From: a bacterium | GTDB taxonomy: Bacteria; UBP15; UBA6099; JAJRTR01 | DNA: 38,845 nucleotides | NCBI GenBank assembly: GCA_024278215.1 | Contig: JAJRTR010000182.1 | Span: forward strand, 62,001-100,845 | Direction of reading: 5' to 3' | Shown here: one piece after another, positions 16,739 through 33,232 of the stretch | Position numbering within the stretch: position 1 is the stretch's first letter | Layout: each line of letters opens with the position of its first letter | Made by a program: the position numbers and the translations under genes | Notes under the pieces: generated by a model | What the model saw: only the letters and a program-made list of their open reading frames with translations | Told to the model about the DNA's origin: nothing | Database searches by the model: none

Positions 16739-16771
16739 AACCCGCATTTCTTTGTGAGAAATCCGGGTTAG
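16737..16771. repeat. palindromic repeat family B
   Basis: CTAACCCGCATTTCTTTGTGAGAAATCCGGGTTAG, near-identical to 9532-9566. Confidence 0.8.
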
Positions 16772-16905
16772 TGCTCCCAATCAATTCGGTTCATGTTCAC
16801 GCCGGACGGCACGAAAAACAAAAAAGCCCGCAAAAGCGGGCCGTTCACGATGCCGGAGACCGGGCTCGAACCGGTACGAGGGATAGCCCTCACGGGATTT
16901 TAAGT
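16768..16905 (-). repeat. distal att direct repeat: 3' half of tRNA-Leu (16851-16905), its terminator (16820-16841) and flank
   Basis: 16807-16905 is identical to 31511-31609 (99 bp); similarity continues to 16768 / 31473; identity ends at the anticodon loop. Confidence 0.95.
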
Positions 16906-16969
16906 TCGACAGTCCATTACAACGCAATCCACAAAAAAGCCCTTGTTTACTATAAAAATCACACATAAC

Positions 16970-16996
16970 GCCCGGAAAACCTCCGGGCTCTTTTTT
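16970..16996 (+). terminator. intrinsic terminator just inside the left end of element 1
   Basis: GCCCGGA-AAACC-TCCGGGC followed by TCTTTTTT. Confidence 0.7.
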
Positions 16997-17034
16997 GTGT
17001 TTTTTCGGATAAAATCGGACCGTTCGGGCTCATT

Positions 17035-17055
17035 TTAGTGCCCCCTGGTGCCCCT
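17035..17055. promoter_or_regulatory. putative integrase arm-type sites (left end)
   Basis: TTAGTGCCCCC-TGGTGCCCCT tandem; same motif pair at 31462-31483. Confidence 0.65.
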
Positions 17056-17209
17056 GCGCCGGGCGGGGCATGAAATTTCGGACCCGGGTACGGGGGTCAA
17101 GCGTTCCGGTCGGCGCAAATTTACGGTCAGGCGCAAAAAGCGGATTTTTGTCTCAACTTTACGATATAATAAACGCAATCGGCAAAGACGCATTTTACCG
17201 GGAGGGCAA

Positions 17210-17802
17210 ATGGCTTTAACGAAATTCATATCATGTCTATCAATCGTTTCAGCGTTTGTTGGGACAATTTTCTTTGTAAAAGGGTTTTTGAAAATCACGC
17301 CGGACGTTATCGCGGCTCAAAGTGGAACGTATTGGGGGTATAATCTTTACATTATGGAGAGTATTTGCTCTCAAAAATCAAACATTGTATGCGAGTTCGT
17401 TTTAGTTCTTATAGCTACGGCTATCCAACTCGCCGGTCTTTTTGTAGACGAAAAAATTGGATTTAATGACTCTAAATTCATATCGCTTGCAATCATAGGA
17501 GGAGCGGCGATACTCCTCTATGTGACCTTTACGTTTATTGATAAACAATATACCGAGTACACTCTCGCGGAGACGAAAAAATCTATATGCGCACAGATTT
17601 CAAAAGATACGTCAAAGACAACAAGATAAATGACTCCGAATTTGCGGGAATCGAAAATGCCGCGAAAAACATGCTTGGATTGACGAGAGACAAGAACGAG
17701 GCCGCGGTCGATTATCTAAAACGTGTTTACAAAGCGGTTGGGGTTGAGTTCCCCAAGTCCATTCAACTCAATTTATCGGTCGATAAAAAAACCGACAATT
17801 AA
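17210..17802 (+). pseudogene. three-TM membrane protein split by a frameshift at an A6 run
   Basis: GGAGGG RBS before ATG 17210; three hydrophobic segments; one extra A at 17576-17581 fuses it to ORF 17587-17802 (ETKKIYMRTDFKRY...). Confidence 0.6.
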
Positions 17803-17823
17803 ACTTTAACGGAGAGAACAGGT

Positions 17824-18228
17824 ATGGGAGAGTATTACGCGATAGTTCACAGGAAACGCATCATGGACGATTTCGGGTTTGTCGCTATCGGCTCGTTCGT
17901 CGTGGACCTCGCGCGTCGGGGCGTTATCTTTGGATACAACGACAAGTACCCGGAGCAACGCGACCACATGGTCGACGTTTTCTCCCGGTTGCGGGAGGAG
18001 CAATGGACTTACGACTGCTGCCTCGATTACTGGAGATTTCAGGGCGGCTACACCGAGTCATATACCGAGCCGCAAATTATCGAGGCGTCCTGCCTTGAGG
18101 AGGCCGCGCGGATTATTACCGAACGGGTGGACGGCGAGTGGCGGTCCTATTGGAACGAAGTGAAAGAAAAAATGAAACGGGACGGCGTTCTCGTTTATGA
18201 CGAGGGACAATTTAATGGCGAAAAGTAA
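17824..18228 (+). CDS. hypothetical protein (134 aa)
   Basis: GGAGAG upstream; overlaps the hsdM start; no recognised motif. Confidence 0.7.
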   Translation: MGEYYAIVHRKRIMDDFGFVAIGSFVVDLARRGVIFGYNDKYPEQRDHMVDVFSRLREEQWTYDCCLDYWRFQGGYTESYTEPQIIEASCLEEAARIITERVDGEWRSYWNEVKEKMKRDGVLVYDEGQFNGEK

Positions 18229-19789
18229 AAACAAAACACTCGACGTGTCGGCGTTGGAGACTTGGTTGTGGGATGCGGCTTGCGTTCTCCGGGGAGCGAC
18301 GGACGCGCCCAAGTACAAGGACTATATTCTCCCGCTTATTTTCTTAAAACGGCTCTCGGACGTTTTCGACGACGAGGTCGCGGGGCTCTCCGAGGAGTTC
18401 GGGAGCGAGGCGAACGCGCTCAAGCTCGTGGAGCAGGACCACAAGCTCGTCCGGTTCTATCTCCCGGAGGACTCGCGTTGGCCGGAAATCGCGAAACGCT
18501 CCGCCGCCGGGCTGGGCGAGTTCCTCACGGACGCCGTCCGGGGCGCGTCACGCGAAAACCCGAAACTCGCCGGGGTCGTGGACGTTACGGATTTTAACGC
18601 TACGACCGCCGGGCAAAGGATTATCGACGACGACCGGCTCCATGCCCTCGTACAAAAACTTAACGAGTACCGCCTCGGCATCAACGACGTGGAGCCGGAT
18701 ATCCTTGGGAGAGCATACGAGTACCTGCTTCGGAAATTCGCGGAGGGCTCCGGGAAAAGCGCGGGAGAGTTCTACACGCCCCGGGAGGTCGGGGTACTCA
18801 TGGCGCGTATCCTCGACCCTGAACCCGGACAGACGGTTTATGACCCGTGTTGCGGCTCCGGTGGACTCCTTATCAAGGCCCACCTCCGGCTTGTCGAAAA
18901 AAAGGGCAAACAAAAGAACGGGAGCCGACGCCTCCCCGCGTCCGTGGCCCCGCTCAAGCTCTACGGACAGGAATACTACGGCGGCACGTTCGCCATGGCC
19001 CGCATGAACGCCTTTATTCACGATATGGAGGCCGAAATCGCGCTCGGCGACACGATGAACGGCCCGGCATTTACCGAGGCCGACGGTGGGCTCCGAGCAT
19101 TCGATATTGTCACGGCCAACCCCATGTGGAACCAGAAATTCACCGCGTCCGTGTACGAGAACGACGCCTACGACCGTTTCACCCGGGGCATACCGCCCAC
19201 GTCCTCGGCGGACTGGGGCTGGATACAGCACATGTTCAAGTCACTCGGGGACGCCGGGAAAATGGCGGTGGTCCTCGACACCGGGGCCGTGGCCCGTGGC
19301 AGCGGCAATCAGGGCGCGAACAAGGAACGGGATATACGGAAAAAGTTCGTGGACGACGACCTCGTCGAGGCGGTCTATCTCCTCCCGGAAAACATGTTCT
19401 ACAACACCACCGCGCCGGGTATCGTCCTCGTGGTAAACAAAAACAAAAAGCACCCCGGAGAGATACTCCTCGTGAACGCCACGGCACAATTCTCCAAAGG
19501 CCGCCCGAAAAACTTCATGGAGGACTCCCACGTCGAGGCGGCGGCGGACGTCTATCTCAAATGGGAGGCCGTCGAGGGGCTGTCGGCGATTATCACGAAA
19601 GACGAAGCGGCCCGGAACGACTACAACCTCTCCCCGAGCCGATATATCTCGACCGGCGCGGAGACGGAGGTCCTCCCTCTCGATGAGGCCGTCCTTCTTC
19701 TCCGGCAGGCCGAGGAGGAACGGGCGGAGGCGGACGAGAAATTGAAAGGTATTTTGACCACACTGGGATTTAATAACGCTAATGGCTAA
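18215..19789 (+). CDS. hsdM: type I R-M methyltransferase subunit
   Basis: LWDAACVLRG..YKDYILPLIFLKRLSD; LGRAYEYLLRKFAE..GEFYTPREV; YDPCCGSGG; motif IV as ANPMW; YNLSPSRY. Confidence 0.96.
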   Translation: MAKSKNKTLDVSALETWLWDAACVLRGATDAPKYKDYILPLIFLKRLSDVFDDEVAGLSEEFGSEANALKLVEQDHKLVRFYLPEDSRWPEIAKRSAAGLGEFLTDAVRGASRENPKLAGVVDVTDFNATTAGQRIIDDDRLHALVQKLNEYRLGINDVEPDILGRAYEYLLRKFAEGSGKSAGEFYTPREVGVLMARILDPEPGQTVYDPCCGSGGLLIKAHLRLVEKKGKQKNGSRRLPASVAPLKLYGQEYYGGTFAMARMNAFIHDMEAEIALGDTMNGPAFTEADGGLRAFDIVTANPMWNQKFTASVYENDAYDRFTRGIPPTSSADWGWIQHMFKSLGDAGKMAVVLDTGAVARGSGNQGANKERDIRKKFVDDDLVEAVYLLPENMFYNTTAPGIVLVVNKNKKHPGEILLVNATAQFSKGRPKNFMEDSHVEAAADVYLKWEAVEGLSAIITKDEAARNDYNLSPSRYISTGAETEVLPLDEAVLLLRQAEEERAEADEKLKGILTTLGFNNANG

Positions 19790-21113
19790 AAAAATGAGAA
19801 AACTAAATGCTGATACAGAGGGGTTTTGGACTTTCGACAAAGACACCCTCCCGGAAACATGGGCCGTAAATTGTATTGGCTCGTTAGCCGAGACCATGTA
19901 CGGAGGGGGAACGCCTTCTACAAAAAATGCGGAGTATTGGGGAGGAGATATTCCTTGGACAACCACCGCAATAATTCACCCGGACGATATTTTCCTTGAC
20001 CGCTATCAAAGGAAAATCACCAAGTTAGGGCTCGAAAAATCTTCGTCTAAAATTGCTCCTCATGGTAGCGTATTAATCGGGACACGAGTTGGCGTCGGAA
20101 AAGCTGTAGTAACGACTTTCGATATTGCTATTAATCAAGACCTTACCGTCTTGTGTCCTAACGATAGAGCCGTCCCGGAGTATATAGTCTTATCGTTAAA
20201 ATCTCCAAATCTGCTGAAATGGTTTGAAGAAAACAAACGAGGAACAACCATAAAAGGGGTTACGAGGGACGACGTAGCTAAATTGGTTATTCCCCTCCCC
20301 CCTCTCCCGGAGCAAAAAGCGATAGCGGGGGTATTGAGGGCGGTACAGGAGGCGAAAGAGGCGACGGAGGGGGTAATCGCGGCGGCGCGGCAGCTCCAGG
20401 CGAGCCTCATGCGACACCTCTTTACCTACGGCCCCGTCCCGTTCGACCAGGCCGACCGGGTCAACCTCAAGGAAACCGAAATCGGCCCGGTCCCGCAGGA
20501 GTGGGATATTAAGCCTATTGGAGATTGCTCTTTGCTGTCACAGTACGGAATTTCAATGCGCGGTAATCTTAAAGGGCAATACCCCATACTTCGCATGAAT
20601 AACCTACAGGAGGGTAAAGTTACAACCGAAAATTTACAATATGTCGATTTAGACGACGATACTTTTAAGAAATTCCGAGTGGAAACGGGTGATATACTTT
20701 TTAACCGTACAAATAGTTTTGAGTTAGTAGGCAAAACCTCGGTTTTCGAGAATGAGGGGGATTATATTTTTGCCTCATATCTTGTGAGGGTTCAATTAGA
20801 CGAAAGCCGTCTTTTACCTCGTTTGCTTAACTACTATATGAACATGGGGAGCACACAAACCCGCCTTAAATCCCTTGCCTCAAGAGCAGTGAGTCAATCG
20901 AACATTAACGCCACAAAGCTAAAGGGGTTCCTCGTTCCGGTTCCACCAATAGAGATACAAAAGCGAATAGTAGAACAAATAAAAGCCGTTGACGATAAGA
21001 TTACGGTCGAAAAGAATAGGCTGTCTATATTGATATCACTTTTCGACTCCCTTCTCCACAACCTTATGACGGGACAAGTTCGCGTCCCGGTCGGAGAGGA
21101 GGCGGGCGCGTGA
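19782..21113 (+). CDS. hsdS: type I R-M specificity subunit
   Basis: Two AT-rich TRDs separated by GC-rich conserved IPLPPLPEQKAIA...ETEIGPVPQEW; VPVPPIEIQ; LLHNLMTG. Confidence 0.96.
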   Translation: MAKKMRKLNADTEGFWTFDKDTLPETWAVNCIGSLAETMYGGGTPSTKNAEYWGGDIPWTTTAIIHPDDIFLDRYQRKITKLGLEKSSSKIAPHGSVLIGTRVGVGKAVVTTFDIAINQDLTVLCPNDRAVPEYIVLSLKSPNLLKWFEENKRGTTIKGVTRDDVAKLVIPLPPLPEQKAIAGVLRAVQEAKEATEGVIAAARQLQASLMRHLFTYGPVPFDQADRVNLKETEIGPVPQEWDIKPIGDCSLLSQYGISMRGNLKGQYPILRMNNLQEGKVTTENLQYVDLDDDTFKKFRVETGDILFNRTNSFELVGKTSVFENEGDYIFASYLVRVQLDESRLLPRLLNYYMNMGSTQTRLKSLASRAVSQSNINATKLKGFLVPVPPIEIQKRIVEQIKAVDDKITVEKNRLSILISLFDSLLHNLMTGQVRVPVGEEAGA

Positions 21114-21155
21114 CGGCGGGCGGCGAAAGGGGCGCGGGAGAACCGGCGGTTTTTG

Positions 21156-21164
21156 TGGTAAACT
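21156..21164 (+). promoter_or_regulatory. extended -10 promoter of the MNT-HEPN cassette
   Basis: TG-G-TAAACT 26 nt upstream of the GGAGG-led ATG at 21191. Confidence 0.5.
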
Positions 21165-21190
21165 GAAAACAAATATGCGGAGGCGGAAAA

Positions 21191-21484
21191 ATGGGCCGCG
21201 AGGAGATATTGAAAATCCTGAAACAGAACTATGACGGCATCGCCGGTCGGTTCGGGGTTACGTCGCTGGCGGTGTTCGGTTCCGCCGCCCGGGACGAGGC
21301 CGGGGCGGACAGCGATATCGACGTGCTGGTGGATTTCCCGGAGCCGCCCACGTTCGACCGGTACATGGACCTCAAGTTTCACCTTGAGGACCTGCTCGGC
21401 AGGCGCGTGGACCTTGTGACGCGGCGCGGGCTGCGCGAGCGCGTGCGCCCGTTCGTCGAAAAGGAGGCCGTGTATGTCGCGTGA
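21191..21484 (+). CDS. minimal nucleotidyltransferase (MNT/MntA-type antitoxin)
   Basis: FGSAARDEAGADSDIDVLV (GSx10DxD); LEDLLGRRVDLVT. Confidence 0.95.
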   Translation: MGREEILKILKQNYDGIAGRFGVTSLAVFGSAARDEAGADSDIDVLVDFPEPPTFDRYMDLKFHLEDLLGRRVDLVTRRGLRERVRPFVEKEAVYVA

Positions 21485-21815
21485 CTGGACCATGTACCTC
21501 GATGATATGATTGCCTGTTGCCGCAGGGTGATAGAGTATACGTGCGGCGCGGACCGGGAGTCTTTTTTCTCCGGCGGCATGGCATACGACGCGACGCTCA
21601 GGAACCTCGAAGTGCTCGGGGAGGCGGCAAAGAAGGTGCCGGAGGATGTGCGTCGGGCGCACCCGGATGTGCAGTGGCGCAAAATCGCGGGTCTGCGCGA
21701 TGTGCTCGCGCACGATTATTTCGGGCTCGAAGAGGAAACCCTGTGGGACGTGGTGGCAAACAAAGTCCCCGCGCTCCTGCCCGCGCTTGAGAAAATCCGG
21801 GAGGAAACCCCGTGA
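21474..21815 (+). CDS. HEPN/DUF86 (HepT-type) RNase toxin
   Basis: DATLRNLEVLGEAAK; WRKIAGLRDVLAHDYF (Rx4H followed by the Tyr modified in HepT). Confidence 0.95.
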   Translation: MSRDWTMYLDDMIACCRRVIEYTCGADRESFFSGGMAYDATLRNLEVLGEAAKKVPEDVRRAHPDVQWRKIAGLRDVLAHDYFGLEEETLWDVVANKVPALLPALEKIREETP

Positions 21816-24712
21816 CGGCGGGCGGCGAGAAAGGCGCGGTGCAGAACCCGTTCGTCCGGTACGCGACCGAGGCGGGCTGGACGTATCTATCCCCTGCGGA
21901 GGCTCTTGAATTACGCAAGGGTGGCATTACAAGCCCCCTTTTGGACGTGGTAGTCGTGGACCAGTTACAGCGGCTTAACCCGGGGATAGTGGACGCGGGC
22001 AAGGCCGAGGAGACGGCTCGAAAAATCGCCCGGGTGCGGCCCAATATCGAGGGGAACCTCGACGCATGGGAGTACATGAAAGGGCTCAAGACCGTTTTCG
22101 TACCGGAGGAAAAGAGGGAGCGCAATATCCGGCTCCTCGACCCGGTCGACGCGGGCGCGAACAAGTTCCACGTTACGGACGAGTTCACTTTCTCTAACGG
22201 CAGCCCTCCGGATATCCGGGCGGATATCGTTTTTTTTGTGAATGGGGTCCCGGTTATTATTGTGGAAACAAAAGGCGCGAAAAAATTAGAGGGTATTGCC
22301 GACGCGCTGGACGATATACGTTACTATCACCGCAAGGGTCCAGAGTTCCTCGCTCTAAATCAAATACATACTCTTACGCACCTCGTACAGTTTTATTACG
22401 GGGCGACCTGGGTCCTTTCCCGGAAGTGGCTTTTTAACTGGCGGGAGGAGTCCGTTAAGGACGGCGATTTCGAGACGCTATGTAAAACTTTTGTGGCTCC
22501 CCGGCGCGTTCTCCGGGTCATTACTGACTTTATCCTATTCACACGAAAGGACGACGAGTTATCAAAGGTCGTGCTCCGGCCCCACCAGATGAGAGCGGCA
22601 GACCGATGTTTAGGCCGGGCGCGGGACGGGGAAAAGACACGAGCCCTTATTTGGCATACACAGGGGTCCGGCAAGACGTACACAATGATAACCACGGCGA
22701 AACGGATACTTGAGGACAAGGACCTCGAAAACCCGACCGTTATCATGCTCGTGGACCGTAACGAGTTGGAGGAGCAGTTATTCAAAAACCTCGAACAGGT
22801 CGGGTTCGGAAGCGTAGCTATTGCCGAGAGTAAAGAAAACCTCAAACAACTCCTCAAGAGCGACCGGCGCGGGCTTATCGTTTCCATGATACACAAGTTC
22901 GACAGGATACCGGCGGAGATAAACGATAGGGAGAACATATACGTACTCGTGGACGAGGCGCACCGGACGACCGGGGGCGACCTCGGCAATTACCTCATGG
23001 GGGCGTTGCCGAATGCTACTTATATGGGCTTTACCGGGACGCCTATCGACCGGACGGAACACGGCAAGGGTACGTTTAAGACTTTCGGCTTACAGGATGA
23101 ACGGGGCTATCTTGATAAATACTCAATCAAAGAGTCCATAGCCGACGGGACAACAGTCCCGATACACTACGCGCTGGCCCCGAACGAGCTGCGGGTCGAG
23201 CGGGAGACGCTTGAACGAGAGTTTTTATCTCTTGCCGACGCCGAGGGCATAAGCGATTTTGAGGAACTAAATAAAGTCCTCGAAAAGGCCGTCACGTTAA
23301 GGAACATGCTCAAGAACGAGGACCGTATCGACAAAGTCGCCCGGTTCGTTGCGGAGCATTTCCGGACTACGGTCGAACCCATGGGCTATAAGGCGTTCCT
23401 CGTAACCGTAGACCGGGAGGCGTGCTGCCTTTTCAAAGAGGCTCTCGATAAATACCTCTCTCCGGAATACTCTGAGGTCGTGATAAGCGGAGGCGGAAAA
23501 AAGGACGGGGAACTCCTCCAGAAATACAAACTATCAGAGGACAAGGAAAAGGATATAAGAAAACAGTTCCGGAAACCGAACGAGTTACCGAAAATGCTCA
23601 TAGTCACGGAAAAGCTCCTTACCGGGTTCGACGCGCCGGTCCTTTACTGTATGTACCTCGACAAGCCCATGAGGGACCACGTTCTCTTACAGGCGATAGC
23701 GCGGGTAAACAGGCCATACGAGGACGACGAGGGGCGAAACAAGCCCGCCGGATTCGTTCTCGATTTCGTGGGGATATTTGAAAAACTCGAAAAGGCTCTC
23801 GCGTTCGACTCGGAGGACGTGAGCGGAGTCGTTGAGGGCGTGGACCTCCTCAAGGAACTTTTCGAGAGCATGATAAAAGACGCCCGGGCCGAGTACCTCC
23901 CGGTTATCAAGGGTAAAAAAGGTGACACACAGGTCGAGGCCGTGCTCGAACATTTCCGGGACAGGGACACGCGGCATGATTACTACAAGTTCTTTAAGGA
24001 ACTCCAAGACGTATATGAGATACTCTCGCCGGACGCCTACCTCCGTCCGTTCCTCCCGGACTACGGACTCTTGACGGATATATACTACACGCTCCGGGCG
24101 AACTACGACCGGGGTATCCCTATAGACCGGGAGTTCCAGAGAAAAACAGCCCGGCTCGTACAGGAACATACGAGCTCCGGAGCGATACAGGCCCCGGACG
24201 AGGGCCATATTATAGACGAGAACGCGCTCCGGAAAATCGCCGGAGAGGACACGCCCGGGACGGTTAAGGTTTTCAATCTCTTAAAAGCAATACACGGGCT
24301 CGTAGAACATAACTCGAATAAAGAGCCATACCTCATAAACATAGGCGAACGTGCAGAGGAGATAGCGCAAGCGTTCGAGGCGCGGCAAAAGACGACCCAA
24401 CAGGCGCTGGAAGAACTCGCCCGGCTTGTGGCGGAACTGGAGGAGGCCAAAGGCGAGCGGGCGGCGACGGGACTCTCACCGGAAGCGTTCGCGGTCTACT
24501 GGTTCCTCAAAAAAGAGGGAGCGGGCGACCCCATGAAAGTAGCCGAGGACGCGGAGAAAACTTTCAAAGAGTACCCGCATTGGAACGTAAGCGAACGGCA
24601 GGAACAGGACGTAAGGCGGAGTTTGTATAAGTCGTTGATAGACTCCGGGGTCGAGGCCGTGGTCGAGGTAGGTAGCAAACTCCTTAAAATGTTAAAGAGG
24701 GCCTCGCAATGA
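21812..24712 (+). CDS. hsdR: type I R-M restriction subunit
   Basis: RADIVFFVNGVPVIIVETK nuclease motif; WHTQGSGKT; VDEAHR; GFTGTP; LLTGFDAP; LLQAIARVNR. Confidence 0.96.
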   Translation: MTAGGEKGAVQNPFVRYATEAGWTYLSPAEALELRKGGITSPLLDVVVVDQLQRLNPGIVDAGKAEETARKIARVRPNIEGNLDAWEYMKGLKTVFVPEEKRERNIRLLDPVDAGANKFHVTDEFTFSNGSPPDIRADIVFFVNGVPVIIVETKGAKKLEGIADALDDIRYYHRKGPEFLALNQIHTLTHLVQFYYGATWVLSRKWLFNWREESVKDGDFETLCKTFVAPRRVLRVITDFILFTRKDDELSKVVLRPHQMRAADRCLGRARDGEKTRALIWHTQGSGKTYTMITTAKRILEDKDLENPTVIMLVDRNELEEQLFKNLEQVGFGSVAIAESKENLKQLLKSDRRGLIVSMIHKFDRIPAEINDRENIYVLVDEAHRTTGGDLGNYLMGALPNATYMGFTGTPIDRTEHGKGTFKTFGLQDERGYLDKYSIKESIADGTTVPIHYALAPNELRVERETLEREFLSLADAEGISDFEELNKVLEKAVTLRNMLKNEDRIDKVARFVAEHFRTTVEPMGYKAFLVTVDREACCLFKEALDKYLSPEYSEVVISGGGKKDGELLQKYKLSEDKEKDIRKQFRKPNELPKMLIVTEKLLTGFDAPVLYCMYLDKPMRDHVLLQAIARVNRPYEDDEGRNKPAGFVLDFVGIFEKLEKALAFDSEDVSGVVEGVDLLKELFESMIKDARAEYLPVIKGKKGDTQVEAVLEHFRDRDTRHDYYKFFKELQDVYEILSPDAYLRPFLPDYGLLTDIYYTLRANYDRGIPIDREFQRKTARLVQEHTSSGAIQAPDEGHIIDENALRKIAGEDTPGTVKVFNLLKAIHGLVEHNSNKEPYLINIGERAEEIAQAFEARQKTTQQALEELARLVAELEEAKGERAATGLSPEAFAVYWFLKKEGAGDPMKVAEDAEKTFKEYPHWNVSERQEQDVRRSLYKSLIDSGVEAVVEVGSKLLKMLKRASQ

Positions 24713-25023
24713 AAGCGACACCGCCGCCGGAGTGGGAACCATTGGAGGAGTCCGTCCCCCGGGACATATTCAAAGCCGAGGTCCGGGCGTGGGCAAAACG
24801 GATAGGCGTCGAGCCGAAAGAGATACACGTCCGGGAAATGACGAAAAAATGGGGAAGCGCGTCCACGACGGGGCGCGTCACGTTCGCCGCCGACCTCCTC
24901 CGGCAACATAGCGAGTTCCGCAAACGTGTAATCGTCGAGGAGCTGTTGCACCTCAAGGTCCCGAATCACGGGAAATTATTCAAGTCGCTCCTCCGGGCGT
25001 ATTTGAAACGGAAAAACCCTTAA
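24709..25023 (+). CDS. short YgjP/DUF45 (M48-like) protein
   Basis: REMTKKWGSAS and VIVEELLHLKVPNHGKLF; HExxH appears as EELLH; ATGA overlap with hsdR, the usual position of this family. Confidence 0.85.
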   Translation: MKATPPPEWEPLEESVPRDIFKAEVRAWAKRIGVEPKEIHVREMTKKWGSASTTGRVTFAADLLRQHSEFRKRVIVEELLHLKVPNHGKLFKSLLRAYLKRKNP

Positions 25024-25215
25024 TATTACGATTTATCGGGTTATTTGACTATAGTCTAATGACATTAGTAAAATATCGAGCGATAACGGCATTTTAGTAT
25101 TGTATGCGACGTATTCCTCGATTTATCAGCAAAAGCCGCTCTCCGGGCGCGTGAGAGGCCTTGAGAGCGATAGTAGAGGCCGGTCGCAACCTCGTTTTCG
25201 GATAGGAGGCGGGAA

Positions 25216-25683
25216 ATGACATACGATTGGATAATCGACGGCGAGATTGGCGTCGGGTCGGCTCCGGTTAATCGGGAGGACGCGGAAGCTCTCCGGGCGG
25301 CGGGTTTTCGAGCCATTCTCGATATGACGGAATCCCACGAGCCCGGATACCGGGGAGGAGTCGACGGGGTAGAATACGAAAACATACCGACGCCGGATTT
25401 AGCGGAGGACGGCGCGGGGTATATTCTCCCGGACGAGGTTATTATCGAGGCGGTTAGATACATACGGGAGAGCGTGGCGGCGGGCCGTCCGGTCTATGTT
25501 CATTGTCGGTACGGCGCGAACCGGAGTTCGATAATCGTAACGGCATACATGTGCGCCGTTCGGAAAATCCGGCTCTACGAAACAATACACACAATAAAAG
25601 AGCGGCACCCGGAAGCGAACCCGAACTACAAACAGGTCGCCGCATTGTGCCGATTTCTCGAAAAGAGAGGAGCCGAGGTATGA
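25216..25683 (+). CDS. dual-specificity / PTP-like phosphatase
   Basis: PTPD acid loop; VYVHCRYGANRS = HCx5RS; ANPNYKQ; AGGAGG RBS. Confidence 0.93.
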   Translation: MTYDWIIDGEIGVGSAPVNREDAEALRAAGFRAILDMTESHEPGYRGGVDGVEYENIPTPDLAEDGAGYILPDEVIIEAVRYIRESVAAGRPVYVHCRYGANRSSIIVTAYMCAVRKIRLYETIHTIKERHPEANPNYKQVAALCRFLEKRGAEV

Positions 25684-26648
25684 GCGGGTTATGTCGGGGA
25701 GACAGAATAGCCGGGGCGATATTCGGAACGGCGGTCGGGGACGCCCTCGGTTATCCGGTCGAGTTCTCCCATGGGGTCACGGTAACGGACCTCCTACCTC
25801 CACACCACTACTCGGACGATACGCAAATGAGTATTGCTACGGTCGAGGGGGGCCTTCAAACCGACCCCTCCCCTAAAAAAGGCCTCCCGAGGTTGGAGGA
25901 GAATATCGCGGCGGAACTCGCAAAGTGGAACGAGTCACAGGATAGACCCGAAAACAGGAGGGCTCCCGGTAATACATGCCTCTCCTCGACGGCCCGCCTC
26001 CGGAAAGGAGTAACGTGGAGGGAGTCGGGAGTCTACTCCGCCGGTTGCGGCACAACTATGAGAATGGGAATACTCGGACTCCTCCTTACCGAGGACGAAA
26101 TTATCGAGAGAGGCCCAGGTATCGCGGCTATGACGCACACTGACCCGAGAGCCATAGCCGGAGGCGTCGGCTCGGCTCTCACGGTAAAGTACATTTCGGA
26201 GGACGTGGAAAACCTCGAAATTATTAAAAAGCTCACGGCGGTATTTTCGGACGGCACTCACTCCGGCCTCCAATGTCCGGAAATGGTGAGGCTCCTCTCC
26301 CGGGTCGAGGATAGTACGGGGCGGGACATAGGGCGTGAGGCCGGGACGGAATGGTATCTCTCGCCTCCGGCGTGGATAGTGGATATGCTCGGAGAGGGGT
26401 GGGTAGCGGACGAGTGTCTCGCCCTCGCGCTGTTCCTCGCATTTCAAGCCGGGGACGACTTCAAAGCCGGAGTGCTCTCGGCGGCGAATCTCGACCGCTC
26501 GGATAAAGACTCGGTAGGCGCGGTCGTGGGTTGTATGTTAGGAACTCGCCTTGGGGCCGAGGCAATCCCGGAGGCGTGGAGGAACAATATAGAAAACGGA
26601 AAGCTACTCGACCGGGTCGCAACGGACGCGACCGCGTGGCGCATGTAA
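25680..26648 (+). CDS. ADP-ribosylglycohydrolase (ARH/DraG family)
   Basis: GTAVGDALG, YSDDTQM, GCGTTMR, MTHTDP, DKDSVGAVVG; ATGA coupling to the phosphatase stop. Confidence 0.93.
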   Translation: MSGLCRGDRIAGAIFGTAVGDALGYPVEFSHGVTVTDLLPPHHYSDDTQMSIATVEGGLQTDPSPKKGLPRLEENIAAELAKWNESQDRPENRRAPGNTCLSSTARLRKGVTWRESGVYSAGCGTTMRMGILGLLLTEDEIIERGPGIAAMTHTDPRAIAGGVGSALTVKYISEDVENLEIIKKLTAVFSDGTHSGLQCPEMVRLLSRVEDSTGRDIGREAGTEWYLSPPAWIVDMLGEGWVADECLALALFLAFQAGDDFKAGVLSAANLDRSDKDSVGAVVGCMLGTRLGAEAIPEAWRNNIENGKLLDRVATDATAWRM

Positions 26649-26760
26649 CATAGTCCCCCTCAAACTCGACCTGAAAACTCCCACCTGAAACCCGACGGTA
26701 TAATAACCATAGGGGAATATTATGATTGTCATTTTGCGCGGTGAAACAGATATGAAAAAT

Positions 26761-26825
26761 AAAGGCGACGGGCTGGTGTCCGCGCGACTTTCCCCTAACC
26801 CGGCCTCGTCGCCTTTTTTCTTTTT
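26761..26825 (+). promoter_or_regulatory. long hairpin followed by a T-tract upstream of the Rep-like gene
   Basis: AAAGGCGACG-GGCTGG (26761-26776) pairs with CCGGCC-T-CGTCGCCTTT (26800-26816), then TTTCTTTTT. Confidence 0.55.
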
Positions 26826-26926
26826 GAGTCGTCGTCGCTCGCTCTACACTCTCCGGTTTTACCGTAGTCAAATCTCCCATAAAGGAAGGCGGACAGTTTG
26901 CCAGCAAACACCGCGTGCGTTTAATT

Positions 26927-27547
26927 ATGTATAGTAATAGAGTTAATAGAGGGGCAAATATAAGAGGACGAGCGAGGCCGCACGGCACCCCGGTCAAGAT
27001 ACCCGAGTTTGATTGTCCCGAGTCGCTCATATATATTCCCACGAGTCCTTTACCTGTTTGTCCTCCCGAAGCTCGGCAAGACTCTTTTTCGAGGGGCCTA
27101 CGACGACGTATTCAAACTAAACACGAACTCATATCACGGGTGGAGCGTTCCGAGTACAACCTCGCTCTTACAACTACTCTACCCTTAGATTATTTCTACT
27201 CCGACGAGGCCGCCCTTAAATACCTCCAAGATAAATTCAACCAAATTGTAGCTCGGCTCCGATACCGAGATATTCCTTTTAAGTTTTTAGGCTTCCCTCA
27301 ACTCAACGAGGACCGTACTAATATCCACGCCCACTACGCCGTCATTACCTCTTTCGATTTTGGCGTAAAAAAGTTCACTAAAACGAGAAAGCGGTTAAGG
27401 CGTATGTGGAAAAAATATACAGACGAAATAGGGCAGGAACTCGATATACGTATCCGGTATTACAAGAGAGGTTGGGCGTCGTATATTTTTCGAGAGTACG
27501 AAATGGGTTGGGGACATGTAATGGTTAGCAGGGACTTCCCGGTGTAA
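26927..27547 (+). CDS. HUH-endonuclease, rolling-circle Rep-like protein
   Basis: Ordered motifs LALTTTL (I), NIHAHY (HUH, II), W, GWASYIFRE (Tyr, III); basic ~206-aa protein; start uncertain. Confidence 0.7.
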   Translation: MYSNRVNRGANIRGRARPHGTPVKIPEFDCPESLIYIPTSPLPVCPPEARQDSFSRGLRRRIQTKHELISRVERSEYNLALTTTLPLDYFYSDEAALKYLQDKFNQIVARLRYRDIPFKFLGFPQLNEDRTNIHAHYAVITSFDFGVKKFTKTRKRLRRMWKKYTDEIGQELDIRIRYYKRGWASYIFREYEMGWGHVMVSRDFPV

Positions 27548-27769
27548 TCTCTCGTACGTATCGGACACTCTCCCGGCTTCCCCACAGTCAAAGAGGCGGT
27601 TTCAAGGTAACGGTACAATAGGTATAGGAGGGAAAAACGTAAGTGGTTAATTTGACAACGGTCAAAAAAAACCGAACGACAAAAATCATTACCGGCTTTT
27701 CGAGGAAAAGTTTTCCCCGACGTTTTCTCACGGTATGAGGACAAAACAAAAAAAGGCGGGCTACGGTAA

Positions 27770-28066
27770 ATGGACGAACGAACTAAACGAAAAAGACTAA
27801 GCCGGTTTATGAAAATAGCGGCAATCGCCGGGCCGGATGCGACAGCGCAAATATGCAACGAGCTATCGGGCGACCGCGTATATATCCCGAAAGCGGACGT
27901 ATTTACAAGGGAGATACGTAACGAGAAAATCGCGGAGGAGTGGGAGCGCGGCGTCCCGGCGTTTGACCTCTCCCGGAAATACAACCTTACCCCACGGCGC
28001 ATATATCAAATCGTGAACGGGAACGGCAACACCGGGAGGATGAGTTCAGCGAGTCTGGGACTATAG
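27770..28066 (+). CDS. Mor/C family transcription activator
   Basis: LSGDRVYIPK...RNEKI...LSRKYNLTPRRIYQIV matches the Mor pattern. Confidence 0.85.
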   Translation: MDERTKRKRLSRFMKIAAIAGPDATAQICNELSGDRVYIPKADVFTREIRNEKIAEEWERGVPAFDLSRKYNLTPRRIYQIVNGNGNTGRMSSASLGL

Positions 28067-28457
28067 TAAAATAACCCACTAACACAGATAGGGAAGATTC
28101 GATACCGGGCTCCGGCATTTACAGAGGCCGACGGGCGACCCTCCCCCGCCCTTTGCGGACGAACAACCGTGCTGGTTACACTGGAAAACAGTCGCGGGAC
28201 CATTGCCTTTATCCGTCGAACATTCTAAAATGGAACTTATCCGACTCTGGATTCTAATTGTCGTTTCTGCCTGAATCGGTCTGGTCAATCGAATAGGAAG
28301 CGACATTTAGTTCCGAGTCGTTACAAACAACCTCGCGGAGGAACCGCCTGATATTCGGGCCGGGTTGACCTCCGGCACGTTTTCGGGAGGGGGCCACTGC
28401 TTTTTCCGCGAGGTTGGGTAGTGCGCCCCTTTTCGGTTTGGGGCATAGGAGGTCAAA

Positions 28458-29303
28458 ATGGCATATTGTGAGAACTGCGGAAATCCGCTTGGAGACAACG
28501 CTCAATTCTGTGTTAAGTGTGGAACAAAAAGACACACCGGGGAGCCGGTCCCTCAACCGGGGCCAATTCAAAACATCGAGACATTGCCTGTATCGCCGCA
28601 AGCGCAACAACCGCCACCGGGCGGGACACAATATCCACAATACGAAAAAGGCCCGACGACGGCGCAGAGAGGCGGCTCAAAACTATCCCTGTCCTCGGTA
28701 TGGGCATGGTTCCGGAAGCAGTCGAAGCCGGTACAGGCGGCGATTGTCGCGGGTATCGTAATACTCATTATTATCGGCGCGACAACGGAATCTCCCGATA
28801 CTCCTACGGGTAGTAATCCCTCCGGGACTACTACAACGGAGCTATCCCCGGAACAACGGCTCTCAAACGCCGAGGCGAAACTACAGGAGTACAAAGATTA
28901 CAAAGCTACCGTACTCGCGGCGTTCGGAGACTCGGACGCTTACGCAAAACGGCTCTACGACCAACTACAGGCGGGCGACATGTATAAGGCGTACGAGACC
29001 GCCGATAAGGGATATTGGGTAAACTTCGAGTTGGCGACGGAGAAATTACCAAAAATCAAACCTCCAAAGGAAATGAAATTGGCTCACGATAAATACGGGG
29101 AGGCCGCGCTATTCAGGCAAAACGCTATGAGGGCGTTTGTAAAAGCCGTAGACGCGAACGGCAAAACTAAACTCATGAAACAATACAAAGATAATGTCGA
29201 GTTCGCGTTTTCAGCATTGACCTCGGCGACAGCGGAAATGACTACCGTAATCGTCGAACAAGAGAAAAAAGTCGAGGAGCTTAAAATCTCGACAACCGAG
29301 TAA
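28458..29303 (+). CDS. zinc-ribbon, single-pass membrane protein with helical C-terminal domain
   Basis: MAYCENCG..FCVKCGT; Pro/Gln linker; TM AAIVAGIVILIIIGA; AGGAGG RBS. Confidence 0.9.
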   Translation: MAYCENCGNPLGDNAQFCVKCGTKRHTGEPVPQPGPIQNIETLPVSPQAQQPPPGGTQYPQYEKGPTTAQRGGSKLSLSSVWAWFRKQSKPVQAAIVAGIVILIIIGATTESPDTPTGSNPSGTTTTELSPEQRLSNAEAKLQEYKDYKATVLAAFGDSDAYAKRLYDQLQAGDMYKAYETADKGYWVNFELATEKLPKIKPPKEMKLAHDKYGEAALFRQNAMRAFVKAVDANGKTKLMKQYKDNVEFAFSALTSATAEMTTVIVEQEKKVEELKISTTE

Positions 29304-29321
29304 AGGCGAGAGGAGGTTAAA

Positions 29322-29738
29322 ATGGCATATTGCGAGAGTTGCGGAAACGAGCTACGAGAGGGTATCAAATTTTGCGGTAAATGTGGAACAAAGGTCGGGG
29401 ACGGGACACCTGCGACCGCACCCCCGGCGACCGCGCCTCCTCTCCGGGAAAGTCCTCCGAGACTACAACCGACCAGAGGACCGTCAATAGGAGACGGCGG
29501 TAAGGTTTACAAAGAAATACGATATACGTGTCAGTCTTGCGGGAACCAGTGGCACAGCTTACCGAGAGAGGAGAGCCTCGGAACAAAATGCGCGACGGCG
29601 GCGGTATGTCCCTGTTGCATAGGAGGCCCGCTTACTCACTTTTTCAAGGGTAAGGGCGGTGTCCCGCTTGAGCACTCCATGTGTAAGAAATGTCGTTCTC
29701 GGAATATCACGCGAGAAGAAATCGAGCACGTAAGGTAG
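29322..29738 (+). CDS. zinc-ribbon protein with second Cys-rich domain
   Basis: MAYCESCG..FCGKCGT; CQSC, CPCC, CKKC; AGGAGG RBS. Confidence 0.88.
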   Translation: MAYCESCGNELREGIKFCGKCGTKVGDGTPATAPPATAPPLRESPPRLQPTRGPSIGDGGKVYKEIRYTCQSCGNQWHSLPREESLGTKCATAAVCPCCIGGPLTHFFKGKGGVPLEHSMCKKCRSRNITREEIEHVR

Positions 29739-29748
29739 GAGGCGGGCA

Positions 29749-29961
29749 ATGGCGGCAAAGGCACTCATACGGCTTATACAATGGTATCAACGGCAGGTAT
29801 CACCCCGGCTCAATACCCGTTGTCGATTTCAGCCCTCGTGTTCTCAATACGCGATTTTAGCGATAGAGAAATATGGAGGCATAGTCGACATCGGGAAAAC
29901 GGCGTGGCGGCTCTGTCGATGCAATCCGTTTAATCAAGGGTCGTGTATAAACTTTCCTTAA
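29749..29961 (+). CDS. YidD-like (membrane protein insertion efficiency / haemolytic domain) protein
   Basis: LIQWYQRQVSP...CRFQPSCSQYAILAIEKYG...RLCRCNPF; AGGAGG RBS. Confidence 0.9.
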   Translation: MAAKALIRLIQWYQRQVSPRLNTRCRFQPSCSQYAILAIEKYGGIVDIGKTAWRLCRCNPFNQGSCINFP

Positions 29962-30184
29962 ACGTAATCACAAAACTACGACAATACGCCTCCGGGAAAG
30001 TATGGAGGACTCTCACAAAAGCAAGATATTTTTATTTGCATCGAAAAAAATCGAGGTCGACGGCGTAGAATTATATGAGAGGGAAAAATCGGGAGGAAAG
30101 GAAAGCAAGCATAATAAAACCTCTACGATACGGTCGATGGTACTACCCTTTCGGACAAAGGACTTTTGAACGGGAGGAGCCGAA

Positions 30185-30367
30185 ATGCTAAAGGAAAAGT
30201 TATTGACGGTAAAAGAAGCGGCCCGGTATTTAGACGTAAGCAAGGATTTCATTTACCGACGAGTTCAATATGAAACCGACGTGGTGAAAGTCGGTAGAGG
30301 AATCCGGTTTACGCTAAGGGCTTTGGAAAAGTGGGTTGCGAACAACACGGTAGCGGGGAGCGTTTAA
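30185..30367 (+). CDS. excisionase-like HTH protein
   Basis: LLTVKEAARYLDVSKDFIYRRV...KVGRGIRF....LEKWV; GGAGG RBS; directly before the integrase. Confidence 0.9.
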   Translation: MLKEKLLTVKEAARYLDVSKDFIYRRVQYETDVVKVGRGIRFTLRALEKWVANNTVAGSV

Positions 30368-30383
30368 TCGCGCTTCCCAACCC

Positions 30384-31607
30384 GTGAGGAAAGGGGGTGA
30401 TAACTTGTTTATACCGAAAGGGAAAAGGTATTGGTACTTCAATGTCTATGACGACATGGGGAAACAGCGGAAATTTTCCACGCGGGTTGAACCGTCCAAA
30501 CCGGGGGTTAAGTGGAGCGAGGAGAAAAAGGGCATAGTGAAAAAGGCGGAGGCGGCGAGAAGCCGGATACTTGCGGAAAAGGGTTACGGGACTCCCCGGT
30601 TTTCACAGGAACGGAAAGCCGTATCTTTCGAGGTCTTGTTCAACGAGTATTACGAACGCCACTCCAGGGTACACAAAAAGAGCCACCGGCACGACCTGTA
30701 CAAAGGACGACATTTATTGGAGGCGTTCGCGGGCGTCCGGGTCGATAAGATAACGCCCCTCGCGATTGAGCGATACAAGGCGAAACGACGGAAGGTAAGC
30801 GGCCCGGCGACGATAAACCGGGAACTCGCGCTCATCAAGCACATCTATACAAAGGGTATCGAGTGGGGGTACTGCCGGGAGAACCCGGCCAAGGGGGTAA
30901 AGCTATGCAAGGAGCCTCCATCCCGAAATATTACTCTCACAGACGACGAGCGTATGAGGCTCATAGAGAGTTGCGACCACCGAATCAGGCCCATTGTCCT
31001 TGTCGCTCTCCATACGGGCATGAGGCAAGGCGAGATTATGGGTATGCGTTGGGAGAACGTGCGGTTCAAAGGAGTTCCGTGTCCGCACATTTTACTCCCC
31101 GTTACAAAATCGGGTAAGCCCCGTGAAATTCCCATGAACCATATCGTTTATCAGGTCCTGTACGAGCAGCCGCGCAACGGCGAGAGGGTATTTAATCGGA
31201 GTTTCCCGCGCTACTCTTGGGAAAAGGCCGTACAGGAGTCGAGACTCAATGGGCTCCGGTTCCATGACCTCCGGCACGAGTTCGGGACGAGACTTGTGAA
31301 CAATGTTCCACTACCTCGTATCAAAGAGCTCCTCGGTCACTCGACAATCCAGATGACCATGAGCTACCTTCATACGACCTCTTTGGAGTTAAAAGAGGCG
31401 GTTGATTACTCGTGTGAGAACTCGCCGGAGTGGCGGAATTGGCAGACGCAGAGGGACGACATTGGTGCCCCTTTAGTGCCCCCAATCAATTCGGTTCATG
31501 TCTTCGCAGGCGGCACGAAAAACAAAAAAGCCCGCAAAAGCGGGCCGTTCACGATGCCGGAGACCGGGCTCGAACCGGTACGAGGGATAGCCCTCACGGG
31601 ATTTTAA
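30384..31607 (+). CDS. int: tyrosine integrase of element 1; ORF runs through the att site and stops in the anticodon-loop core
   Basis: SGPATINRE, HTGMRQGEI, TKSGK, RFHDLRH, LLGHS..MTMSY; start may be TTG 30405. Confidence 0.95.
   Translation: MRKGGDNLFIPKGKRYWYFNVYDDMGKQRKFSTRVEPSKPGVKWSEEKKGIVKKAEAARSRILAEKGYGTPRFSQERKAVSFEVLFNEYYERHSRVHKKSHRHDLYKGRHLLEAFAGVRVDKITPLAIERYKAKRRKVSGPATINRELALIKHIYTKGIEWGYCRENPAKGVKLCKEPPSRNITLTDDERMRLIESCDHRIRPIVLVALHTGMRQGEIMGMRWENVRFKGVPCPHILLPVTKSGKPREIPMNHIVYQVLYEQPRNGERVFNRSFPRYSWEKAVQESRLNGLRFHDLRHEFGTRLVNNVPLPRIKELLGHSTIQMTMSYLHTTSLELKEAVDYSCENSPEWRNWQTQRDDIGAPLVPPINSVHVFAGGTKNKKARKSGPFTMPETGLEPVRGIALTGF
31424..31457 (+). other. inverted 5' half of a tRNA-Leu inside the integrase 3' end
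   Basis: GCCGGAGTGGCGGAATTGGCAGACGC matches nt 1-26 of the neighbouring tRNA-Leu at 25/26, then AGA-GGGAC up to the anticodon loop. Confidence 0.85.
31524..31545 (-). terminator. intrinsic terminator of tRNA-Leu
   Basis: Minus strand GCCCGC-TTTT-GCGGGC-TTTTTT. Confidence 0.8.
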
Positions 31608-31640
31608 GTCCCGGGCGTCTACCAATTCCGCCACTCCGGC
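31555..31640 (-). tRNA. tRNA-Leu(TAA), CCA not encoded
   Basis: GCCGGAG/CTCCGGC acceptor stem, CGGGA-CTTAAAA-TCCCG anticodon arm, long variable arm GAGGG-CTAT-CCCTC, GGTTCGAGCCC T arm. Confidence 0.97.
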
Positions 31641-31843
31641 TTTTTAAAAATATCCTTTTGTTTAAGCCAATATTTGCTAACTTTACAATTGGTTTGCAGT
31701 AATCTATTTTGTGTTTCGCACAAATTCACCCTATTTATCTTAGCTTATGTGCGCTGAATTGAGAACAGATCGGTGAGATTTTCCAAATATTTGTTTGATG
31801 TGTTTTCTCCACGTCTTTATCGCGCATATTTCACCAATGCAGG

Positions 31844-31974: not shown

Positions 31975-32047
31975 GGGGACTTAGCTCAGCTGGGAGAGCG
32001 CCGCCCTTGCACGGCGGAGGTCGAGGGTTCGAGCCCCTTAGTCTCCA
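31975..32047 (+). tRNA. tRNA-Ala(TGC), CCA not encoded
   Basis: GGGGACT/AGTCTCC acceptor stem with G3:U70; CCGCC-CTTGCAC-GGCGG anticodon arm; GGTTCGAGCCC. Confidence 0.97.
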
Positions 32048-32081
32048 TAACCAAGAAACACTGATAACTACAGGCTTTTTT

Positions 32082-32105
32082 GCCCCGTGGAGGGGCTTCC
32101 TTTTT
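32082..32105 (+). terminator. terminator-like hairpin after tRNA-Ala
   Basis: GCCCC-GTGGA-GGGGC-TTCCTTTTT. Confidence 0.55.
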
Positions 32106-32154
32106 GCCCTGTACCGGGCAGAAGTTAGCCAAGGTTAGACAAATCTTCACGTTT

Positions 32155-33174
32155 TCACTCCAGGAACGCCGCAATCTTCTTGTCACGTTTGTCACTCACG
32201 TGTGCGTAGATCATCGTGGTCATCGGGCTACTGTGACACAGGTAGTACTGCACGTCGTACAGGGTCGCATCTTTCTCAATCATCTCAGTTGCGCAGCGAT
32301 GACGCAACGCGTGGAACCGCCTGTCGGGGAGTCCGAGTTCTTCATCGACTTTATCCCGGACGCGCCGCCATGCAGCACGCGGGAAGTACGGGAACGGCTT
32401 GTCCTTGTTCTCGGACCTCAACTGGAACAGCAACTGGAAAACTGACTGCGGAGGCTTGCGGTAGTGTTCTTCAAGTCCGCCTTTCTTCTTACTAATCCAA
32501 TACTTGATGGTTTGTTTCCCGAAGTCAACATCCTTCCACTCGACTCTCAGAATCTCTTTCAGGCGTCGCCCCGTCTTCAGAGCGAAGAATACAATCGAGT
32601 ACAGGTATGAGCTTTCTTTCCTGGCCTCTTTAAGGATAGCATCTGTATGCTCAGCGGTGAGAAACTGCTTTACCGGGCGAGACGGATACGCCTTTGTCTT
32701 TGCCACTGGGTTCTTGGTGCAATACTCCCACTCGATGGCCCTGTTGAAGATTGCGCTTAGAACGTTGCGATACCTGTTCCAGGTGGTACCCTGGCGTGTC
32801 TTTACAACTTTGTTGTGGAACCTGCGGATGTCCAGGGGAGATATGTCATCCATCATCTTCCCGGAGAACTCCCTCTCGATCAGGTTCATTCGAGACTTGT
32901 CGATGGTGTAGTTCTCTTTGTACAGAGCAAAGACTTCATCAAACGACCGCGCCGGCAGTCGCTGTATGTCCAGGTCTTCGTCCGAGACCCGTTTCAGAAT
33001 GACTCTTTCGGCTTCTACTTTTATCGACTTCATCTCATTGTTCCACTTAATGCCTTTCTTCGAGGCTCTGACGCCGCTGGACAGCGTACGTCGAGAACCT
33101 TCTGACAGCTTGATCTTGCAGGCCCATAGGCCTTTTACTTGCCACCAATACACTAAATCACTTCCTTTCGTCAC
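32155..33174 (-). CDS. int: tyrosine integrase of element 2
   Basis: KTGRRLKEILRVEWKDVDF, RRFHALRH, YLCHSSPMTTMIYAH; start probably GTG 33174 or 33153 because longer starts overlap xis. Confidence 0.93.
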   Translation of the reverse strand: MTKGSDLVYWWQVKGLWACKIKLSEGSRRTLSSGVRASKKGIKWNNEMKSIKVEAERVILKRVSDEDLDIQRLPARSFDEVFALYKENYTIDKSRMNLIEREFSGKMMDDISPLDIRRFHNKVVKTRQGTTWNRYRNVLSAIFNRAIEWEYCTKNPVAKTKAYPSRPVKQFLTAEHTDAILKEARKESSYLYSIVFFALKTGRRLKEILRVEWKDVDFGKQTIKYWISKKKGGLEEHYRKPPQSVFQLLFQLRSENKDKPFPYFPRAAWRRVRDKVDEELGLPDRRFHALRHRCATEMIEKDATLYDVQYYLCHSSPMTTMIYAHVSDKRDKKIAAFLE

Positions 33175-33232
33175 CTCCCTTATACCGGAATGTACATTTA
33201 TTATCTCCGGCAAAGGGTTGCTCTGGCAAGGG

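Follow-up and report, generated by a model that had tools for sequence, protein, structure and literature searches.

A copy of the 5' half of the target tRNA-Leu(UAA), inverted relative to the tRNA gene, lies in the attP P arm of a tyrosine-integrase island

In lambda, sib is a compact local hairpin beyond attP, which is joined to int in the free phage and parted from int in the prophage, and double-stranded RNA on read-through transcripts controls the int mRNA. Int expression that differs with integration state, a concept shared with the island considered here, is also described for ICEKp1, by means of promoter switching (PMC13023037), and for KplE1 intS, which is tightly regulated (PMC2951348); the accessible parts of these two reports do not mention a captured target-gene fragment at the int 3' end. 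In Mx8 IntP and the SSV-type integrases, the int frame crosses the attachment region, as in the present island, and integration gives Mx8 int a new 3' end and splits SSV int (PMC6070905; PMC4383910). Anticodon-loop islands of the Islander class are tyrosine-integrase islands between an intact tRNA gene (tDNA) and a direct, displaced 3' fragment of it, with an identity block that ends in the anticodon loop, and tDNA fragments in the opposite orientation are dropped by Islander as false positives (PMC4383910). The island described here lies in a window of 38,845 nucleotides from a bacterium of the UBP15 lineage (contig JAJRTR010000182.1, positions 62,001 to 100,845, the whole stretch that was analysed and to which all coordinates refer), and it carries a fragment of this latter kind, namely a copy of the 5' half of its own target, tRNA-Leu(UAA), within the P arm of attP and within the int reading frame. 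The features that bear on it are the following:

16768..16905, plus strand: left direct repeat, with the displaced tRNA 3' fragment (16851-16905), 3' flank, terminator and one arm-like repeat
16906..31609, no strand assigned: 14.7-kb island, cargo followed by xis and int at its end
16970..16996, plus strand: intrinsic terminator, a hairpin (16970-16988) and then a T run, which would lie 61-90 nucleotides past the core in the excised circle
17035..17054, plus strand: P'-arm direct repeats TTAGTGCCCC / CTGGTGCCCC, ~130 bp from the crossover end
30384..31607, plus strand: tyrosine integrase (Int) of 407 residues (PF00589, E 3.3e-23, residues 185-332; Tyr codon at 31365)
31424..31450, plus strand: inverted (int-sense) copy of tRNA-Leu(UAA) nucleotides 1-26/27, int codons 347-356 (SPEWRNWQT)
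31462..31482, plus strand: P-arm direct repeats TTGGTGCCCC / TTAGTGCCCC, putative arm-type Int sites
31473..31609, plus strand: right direct repeat, with island-borne flank, terminator and tRNA nucleotides 86-32
31529..31546, minus strand: intrinsic terminator of the tRNA, within the int reading frame
31555..31640, minus strand: tRNA-Leu(UAA), the integration target (ARAGORN and Rfam), nucleotides 32-86 supplied by the island and 1-31 chromosomal
31615..31640, plus strand: chromosomal partner arm, the complement of tRNA nucleotides 1-26, followed by TTTTT (31641-31645)

A sequence-only reading of this DNA had matched 31424-31449 to tRNA-Leu nucleotides 1-26 at 25 of 26 positions in the opposite orientation, and a repeat search and shuffled sequences agree with it. 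The search returned an inverted repeat with arms of 26 nucleotides (31424-31449 and 31615-31640) that are 96% complementary and have 165 nucleotides between them, the first arm being, on the plus strand, an inverted 25/26 copy of nucleotides 1-26 of the resident tRNA-Leu(UAA), from which it differs solely by C instead of T at tRNA nucleotide 20. At three or fewer mismatches, the 26-mer occurs in the window at these two sites only, and it has no match in 100 dinucleotide-preserving shuffles. Since the plus strand is also the int strand, the fragment reads along int as a sense tRNA 5' half. Leu(taa), of which 31555-31640 is the sole gene found in the genome, is the best match to the fragment among the five tRNA-Leu genes of this genome, none of the others fitting better as its source. 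The fragment is identical at 27/27 positions to nucleotides 1-27 of the tRNA-Leu(taa) of an unrelated genome (L053), agrees at 26/27 with the tRNA-Leu(taa) of a distant integrase locus (L024), and equals nucleotides 1-27 of a variant tRNA-Leu(UAA) in which positions 20 and 27 are C and A. The genome has 47 tRNAs, and for none of the other 46 does an inverted piece of itself lie within 800 bp. By its position, 59 nucleotides past the catalytic Tyr codon and 12 nucleotides left of the P-arm repeat pair, the fragment is part of the P arm of attP, and it lies inside the int frame because this frame continues for 79 residues beyond the Tyr.

A close relative was sought by genome search among 60 relatives, which yielded one close piece, on contig C151 of a genome from the same order and a different family (G008; locus L007), where an open frame of 104 residues matches Int residues 305-407 at 54% identity. 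In L007, the last ~100 int codons directly follow a 2-oxoacid dehydrogenase acyltransferase gene, a neighbour seen on an identical metagenome copy (L071), and are themselves followed by the tRNA-half copy, two direct repeats GGTACCTTT, and a terminator and the antisense 3' part of a tRNA-Leu(taa), both of which differ from those of the window, past which lies unrelated DNA with a GemA-like gene; the locus is a decayed copy, probably the inner junction of a tandem array. Its fragment is identical to that of the window at 29/29 nucleotides (TC, tRNA nucleotides 1-26 and A), while its two arm repeats, at the same position as those of the window, differ from them in sequence. No indel interrupts the alignment between the catalytic end of int and the anticodon loop, and the spacing is the same, with 59 nucleotides from the Tyr codon to the fragment and then 105 nucleotides to the tRNA 3' end. 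Window and L007 compare as follows:

int core, 41 codons: 66% nucleotide identity, same codon at 9/25 identical degenerate residues
nine fragment codons: 100% nucleotide identity, same codon at 7/7
arm and terminator stretch: 53% nucleotide identity, same codon at 7/10
tRNA 3' part: 67% nucleotide identity, same codon at 6/10

The identity of the fragment at 29/29 nucleotides and 7/7 codons, set against 9/25 codons in the int core, argues for a constraint on the nucleotides and not on the amino acids alone; at the rate of the core, 7/7 same codons have a probability of 0.36^7, or ~8e-4, and this comparison of two lineages supports a nucleotide-level constraint. Both fragments have C20 and the tRNA-Leu(taa) genes of the source genome (G000) and of G003 have T20, hence the fragment was inherited in the element lineage and not re-copied from the host. 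The 5' half of G008's own tRNA-Leu(taa) was not found at three or fewer mismatches in this genome, which is 89% complete. As read from this alignment, the nucleotides of the fragment and its spacing have been held constant in two diverged island lineages. The end of the fragment at GGGAC, which had been placed at the crossover point, matches the tRNA with a 1-nucleotide offset only and is not kept in L007. The observation itself is confirmed: the fragment is a conserved, rare and lineage-specific attP component, fixed in the P arm of a tyrosine-integrase island whose insertion site is the tRNA-Leu(UAA) anticodon loop.

By all sequence-level criteria, the island is otherwise an ordinary tDNA-integrating member of the anticodon-loop class. 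A k-mer scan with alignment gave a direct repeat of ~138 bp (16768-16905 and 31473-31609) with one 1-nucleotide indel and few mismatches near 31502-31510, which holds tRNA nucleotides 86-32, the tRNA 3' flank and the minus-strand tRNA terminator. The segments 16851-16905 and 31555-31609 are identical and point the same way, so that the island is bounded by an intact tDNA and its displaced 3' fragment, at a size within the 2-200 kb of this class, and because repeat identity stops at 31609/16905, within the anticodon loop (anticodon 31604-31606), the island spans 16906-31609. It differs from the Islander class in the extra opposite-orientation tDNA 5' fragment inside it and in an identity block that is unusually long, reaching 75 bp past the tRNA. 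It had been proposed that the int frame crosses the fragment and stops in the att core; the frame does so, with its TAA at 31605-31607 inside a block that ends at 31609, but with ~138 bp, including these 75 bp of 3' flank, the block is more than a short core.

Int has the catalytic motif GHSTIQMTMSYLH, and weak matches to Int_N and SAM-like domains (Int_N: E 2.6e-4 and 22.1 bits, under the Pfam cut-off of 27 bits). Its 79-residue tail after the Tyr is read through the P arm to the TAA, which overlaps the anticodon. Since this stop lies inside the direct repeat common to both junctions, the Int protein is identical in the integrated and the excised state, in contrast to Mx8 and SSV, where integration alters or splits it. 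In both elements, the int frame crosses the P arm for 75 codons without a stop (P from shuffles, 0.036 in the window and 0.017 in L007); 2-4 stops interrupt the remaining two frames over this arm.

The sequence TTRGTGCCCC, at one mismatch or fewer, occurs five times in the window, always on the plus strand and at att regions (16768, 17035, 17045, 31462 and 31473); this window-wide count is not above chance, the placement being the informative part, and the copies are read as putative arm-type sites, present on P as well as P', at a distance of ~130 bp from the crossover end in each case. The fragment was considered as an arm-type site itself and has, by eye, no sequence match to the TTRGTGCC repeats. 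The left direct repeat, which is nominally chromosomal, opens with an arm-like repeat, TTAGTGCTCC (16768-16777), so that the "chromosomal" tRNA flank may be homogenised with, or derived from, the island P arm.

The reading favoured here, though tentatively, is that the fragment acts as RNA and marks the integrated state. Its complement is chromosomal, hence linked to int only when the island is integrated, and only then would a junction-crossing transcript hold both the fragment and the chromosomal tRNA 5' half, which could pair into a 26-bp long-range duplex. The predicted fold of a transcript of 31400-31655 contains such a helix, with pair probabilities of 0.96-1.0 at 25 of its 26 positions and a C.A mismatch at the remaining one, and the duplex energies are predicted as -51.5 kcal/mol for the plus and -56.2 kcal/mol for the minus strand; the duplex of 26-33 bp that had been envisaged folds at the lower figure and not at 33 bp. 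In the int-sense RNA, UUUUU stands directly 3' of the 3' arm of the duplex, so that in int read-through RNA the duplex would end or destabilise the int mRNA, by forming a terminator-like 3' end or by serving as a substrate of RNase III; it may also shield the tRNA promoter. From the int catalytic domain up to the junction, the tRNA terminator is the sole hairpin, and its T run is on the minus strand; int transcription therefore plausibly reaches the junction. A minus-strand transcript that runs past the tRNA terminator is predicted to form the same duplex with C20/T20 as a G.U pair and the helix uninterrupted, and this mismatch-free duplex would mark the antisense-to-int transcript for processing. 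When the excised circle was rebuilt from window coordinates, the complement at 31615-31640 was replaced by the left end (16906 onwards), as the sequence-only reading had stated, and the helix cannot form in this context; its place is taken by the hairpin at 16970-16988 and the T run after it, such that int mRNA from the circle would carry no duplex and end at an ordinary terminator. The geometry of a state sensor is thus sound in these models, and a duplex is possible on either strand.

Like sib, this would be a structure downstream of int whose linkage to int is changed by site-specific recombination, and double-stranded RNA, on transcripts that are assumed to read through, would control the int mRNA here as it does there. 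In contrast to sib, the predicted duplex is long-range, with a 165-nucleotide loop, derives from a tRNA half and is complete only when integrated, and the polarity is opposite, hence the likeness is one of concept only and the island should not be filed as sib-type. The sib-like idea is put forward as a hypothesis, to which a DNA-level role in the P arm and a recombination scar are serious rivals.

Several points weigh against a role as RNA. The C.A mismatch, from C20 in the fragment and T20 in the host, falls in the int-mRNA duplex and the minus strand fits better; exact spacing is not needed for an RNA and is better explained by a DNA-protein architecture; and translation across the fragment would compete with folding. 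The fragment is carried by two lineages only, one of them represented by the relic L007, whose int is cut to its last 104 codons and lacks an adjoining tRNA 5' half. To these points adds the distribution beyond L007. With the Int protein, 50 loci were found (L005-L054), 38 of which hold a tRNA, and none of these 38 loci of distant int relatives has an inverted tRNA piece (score of at least 14, within 600 bp), nor does one lie beside the second integrase/tRNA-Ala island of the same window. L024-L054 stem from a scan with EWRNWQTQ among its patterns, and because this is the translated tRNA-Leu 5' half, the set of distant loci is enriched for tRNA-Leu genes. The nearest relative in a search with the whole Int protein has 40% identity. 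Tail residues 300-407 returned the query alone among proteins of 223-713 residues, the tail as its own query had no match among proteins of 59-189 residues, and a scan of 1.84 billion representative proteins gave eight matches, none with the SPEWRNWQT tail. The search for the inverted half in homologous integrases, which had been suggested as a check, thus has two sides, with 29/29 nucleotides kept in the only close relative amid 53-66% identity, and absence from the 38 distant loci.

A nucleotide pattern of a tRNA-Leu 5' half, 90-120 nucleotides and an antisense tRNA 3' end matched in two of 13 genomes of the phylum (G000 and G008), in no viral contig and at 19 metagenome loci. These comprise L071, which duplicates L007, the loosely similar L063, three ordinary pairs of convergent tRNA genes, and 14 loci with another motif. 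The fragment is rare and confined to one lineage, and no description of an inverted target-tRNA 5' half in an attP P arm was found in the literature, subscription journals being outside the coverage. In L063 (2001-2196), a 46-nucleotide sense 5' part of tRNA-Leu(caa), reaching through the anticodon stem-loop, precedes a hairpin and two direct repeats, GTGGGCCAAT; an antisense tRNA-Leu(caa), whose acceptor stem is different, comes next, and the contig ends there. No integrase was found among the five open reading frames tested, and the locus may represent a junction of this kind that has no relation to the present one. The other motif (L062, L064, L066-L070, L072-L074 and L076-L079) comprises a complete tRNA-Leu (cag or caa) with a terminator and, ~55-75 nucleotides past the tRNA, an inverted copy of its own last 21-25 nucleotides, which spans the T loop to the 3' end, in some cases with CCA, and beyond which the sequences differ by locus. 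No integrase was found in 43 open reading frames of L062, L064, L070, L074, L076 and L079, nor in three of L078; in L064, L070 and L074, the 2-kb flank includes a gene of RNase R/II type with an RNB domain.

The simplest origin of the fragment, we infer, is a tRNA half-site from recombination at the anticodon loop, which may have been left over from a 5'-type attP or generated by integrase-mediated inversion. That it is nothing further, i.e., a non-functional scar of an Int-mediated inversion or of an ancestral attP with the tRNA 5' half, is the likeliest rival and is considered somewhat unlikely; its apparent conservation would then come from having two samples, from a recent common origin or from past gene conversion with tRNA genes. 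In line with such a scar, distant Int relatives occur in both arrangements, convergent with the tRNA as in the window (L031, L033, L034 and L042), or co-oriented and directly upstream of a complete tRNA-Leu (L024, L028, L030, L035, L045, L051 and L054), with the int stop 10-55 nucleotides before the tRNA 5' end and an Int identity of 24-36% (36% for L024, at a tRNA-Leu(taa)). The co-oriented arrangement, mostly in metagenome-assembled genomes of Acidobacteriota and in one of Zixibacteria, is the rarer kind, in which the island replaces the tRNA 5' part; the Islander report counts 159 such 5' cases among 3919 islands, known but uncommon (PMC4383910). Two copies of a ~65-bp repeat (GGGCTTCGGCCTGTTAACC...) lie directly downstream of the Zixibacteria tRNA-Leu(taa) of L024 (1255-1420), and the L024 island is probably on the 5' side of the tRNA, because the 450 nucleotides read beyond the tRNA contain this repeat and nothing island-like (genes there being unannotated). 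Against the L024-type tRNA (…GACGCAAGGGAC|TTAAAA), the fragment of the window extends to C32 of the anticodon loop with a 1-nucleotide insertion, which has the look of a half-site junction, and this part is lost in L007.

A tyrosine integrase is also able to invert DNA between inverted att sites, as documented for pTN3 of Thermococcales, and this offers a possible route to an inverted att half-site (PMC5495485). The pTN3 enzyme is, however, of the archaeal SSV family and makes large chromosomal inversions (PMC5495485), whereas the island has a 27-nucleotide piece only and no inversion product was seen. A flip of the 165 bp between the repeats would rebuild a sense tRNA beside int, and this flipped form was not seen in L024 or any other locus. 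The rarity of the feature likewise suits a scar, but nucleotides 1-27 are 100% identical with a sharp edge, while nucleotides 28-32 and the surroundings have diverged, and recent gene conversion in G000 is unlikely, because this genome has no donor tRNA of the exact sequence.

A DNA-level role, in which the 27-bp copy would serve in the intasome as a protein-binding or architectural site for Int, Xis or a host factor, is judged rather unlikely. Because the P arm folds back, the inverted copy would lie parallel to the same sequence of attB, and it could then aid synapsis or set directionality in attR. Such a role would fit a position that is kept exactly relative to the Tyr codon, the arm repeats and the core, with zero indels over ~240 nucleotides of only 53-67% identity, although the lack of indels could stem from the open reading frame alone. 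It would also fit the distance of 12 nucleotides from the arm-type repeats, a conservation that takes no account of the C/T difference between fragment and host tRNA, and a putative N-terminal arm-binding region of Int (Int_N below the cut-off) together with repeats on both arms. Yet the fragment is without the anticodon stem (nucleotides 27-31), where core-type Int sites are expected, the P' arm has no second or partial copy, and no such site is reported in the open literature covered for known tRNA-targeting attP.

That SPEWRNWQT is a motif of an extended Int C-terminal tail, with a merely historical resemblance to tRNA, is highly improbable, since, even if the frame is open for 75 codons in both elements and C-terminal tails regulate some tyrosine recombinases, all seven degenerate codons are identical, which protein selection does not require, the rest of the tail merely translates terminator and tRNA with 10/35 residues identical, and relatives stop ~40-50 residues past the Tyr without the motif.

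In a wider reading, the sense 5' half would be a nucleic-acid probe of the target, either as RNA, with int off and the polarity opposite to sib, or as DNA that pairs attP with the target 5' half at synapsis; this is doubtful. Both halves of the target tRNA are present on the island, oriented oppositely, and by way of this captured piece of the target gene either form of probe might read the integration state or the target, a proposal that is held with equally little confidence.

The remaining features of the window are the genes of the island, the neighbour on its left and a second integrase on its right. Besides the three type I restriction-modification genes, the cargo of this putatively mobile defence island comprises a YgjP-like peptidase, an ADP-ribosylglycohydrolase, two zinc-ribbon proteins and YidD:

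15060-16475: open reading frame of 471 residues, left of the island
18197-19789: HsdM, island cargo, type I restriction-modification
19782-21113: HsdS, island cargo, type I restriction-modification
21812-24712: HsdR, island cargo, type I restriction-modification
30185..30367, plus strand: putative excisionase of 60 residues (HTH_17, E 1.9e-9)

To the right, another tyrosine integrase with PF00589 lies on the minus strand (32155-33375) and converges on a tRNA-Ala (31975-32047), such that 31975-33375 has the look of a further island. Rfam also gives a weak isrK match (31525-31597, minus strand; 20.5 bits against a gathering score of 50 bits, E 0.055), which covers the tRNA 3' part and the terminator and is taken to be due to chance.

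How int is kept low when integrated and yet available after excision is understood for few model elements only, and a target-derived sequence that completes a structure only at attR would, if true, be a simple and portable state sensor. At least one opposite-orientation tDNA fragment, which is noise to island-finding software, is a conserved part of an attP. Even if only a scar, the fragment would still record a switch of orientation in an integrase lineage that contains both 5'-replacing and 3'-replacing islands.

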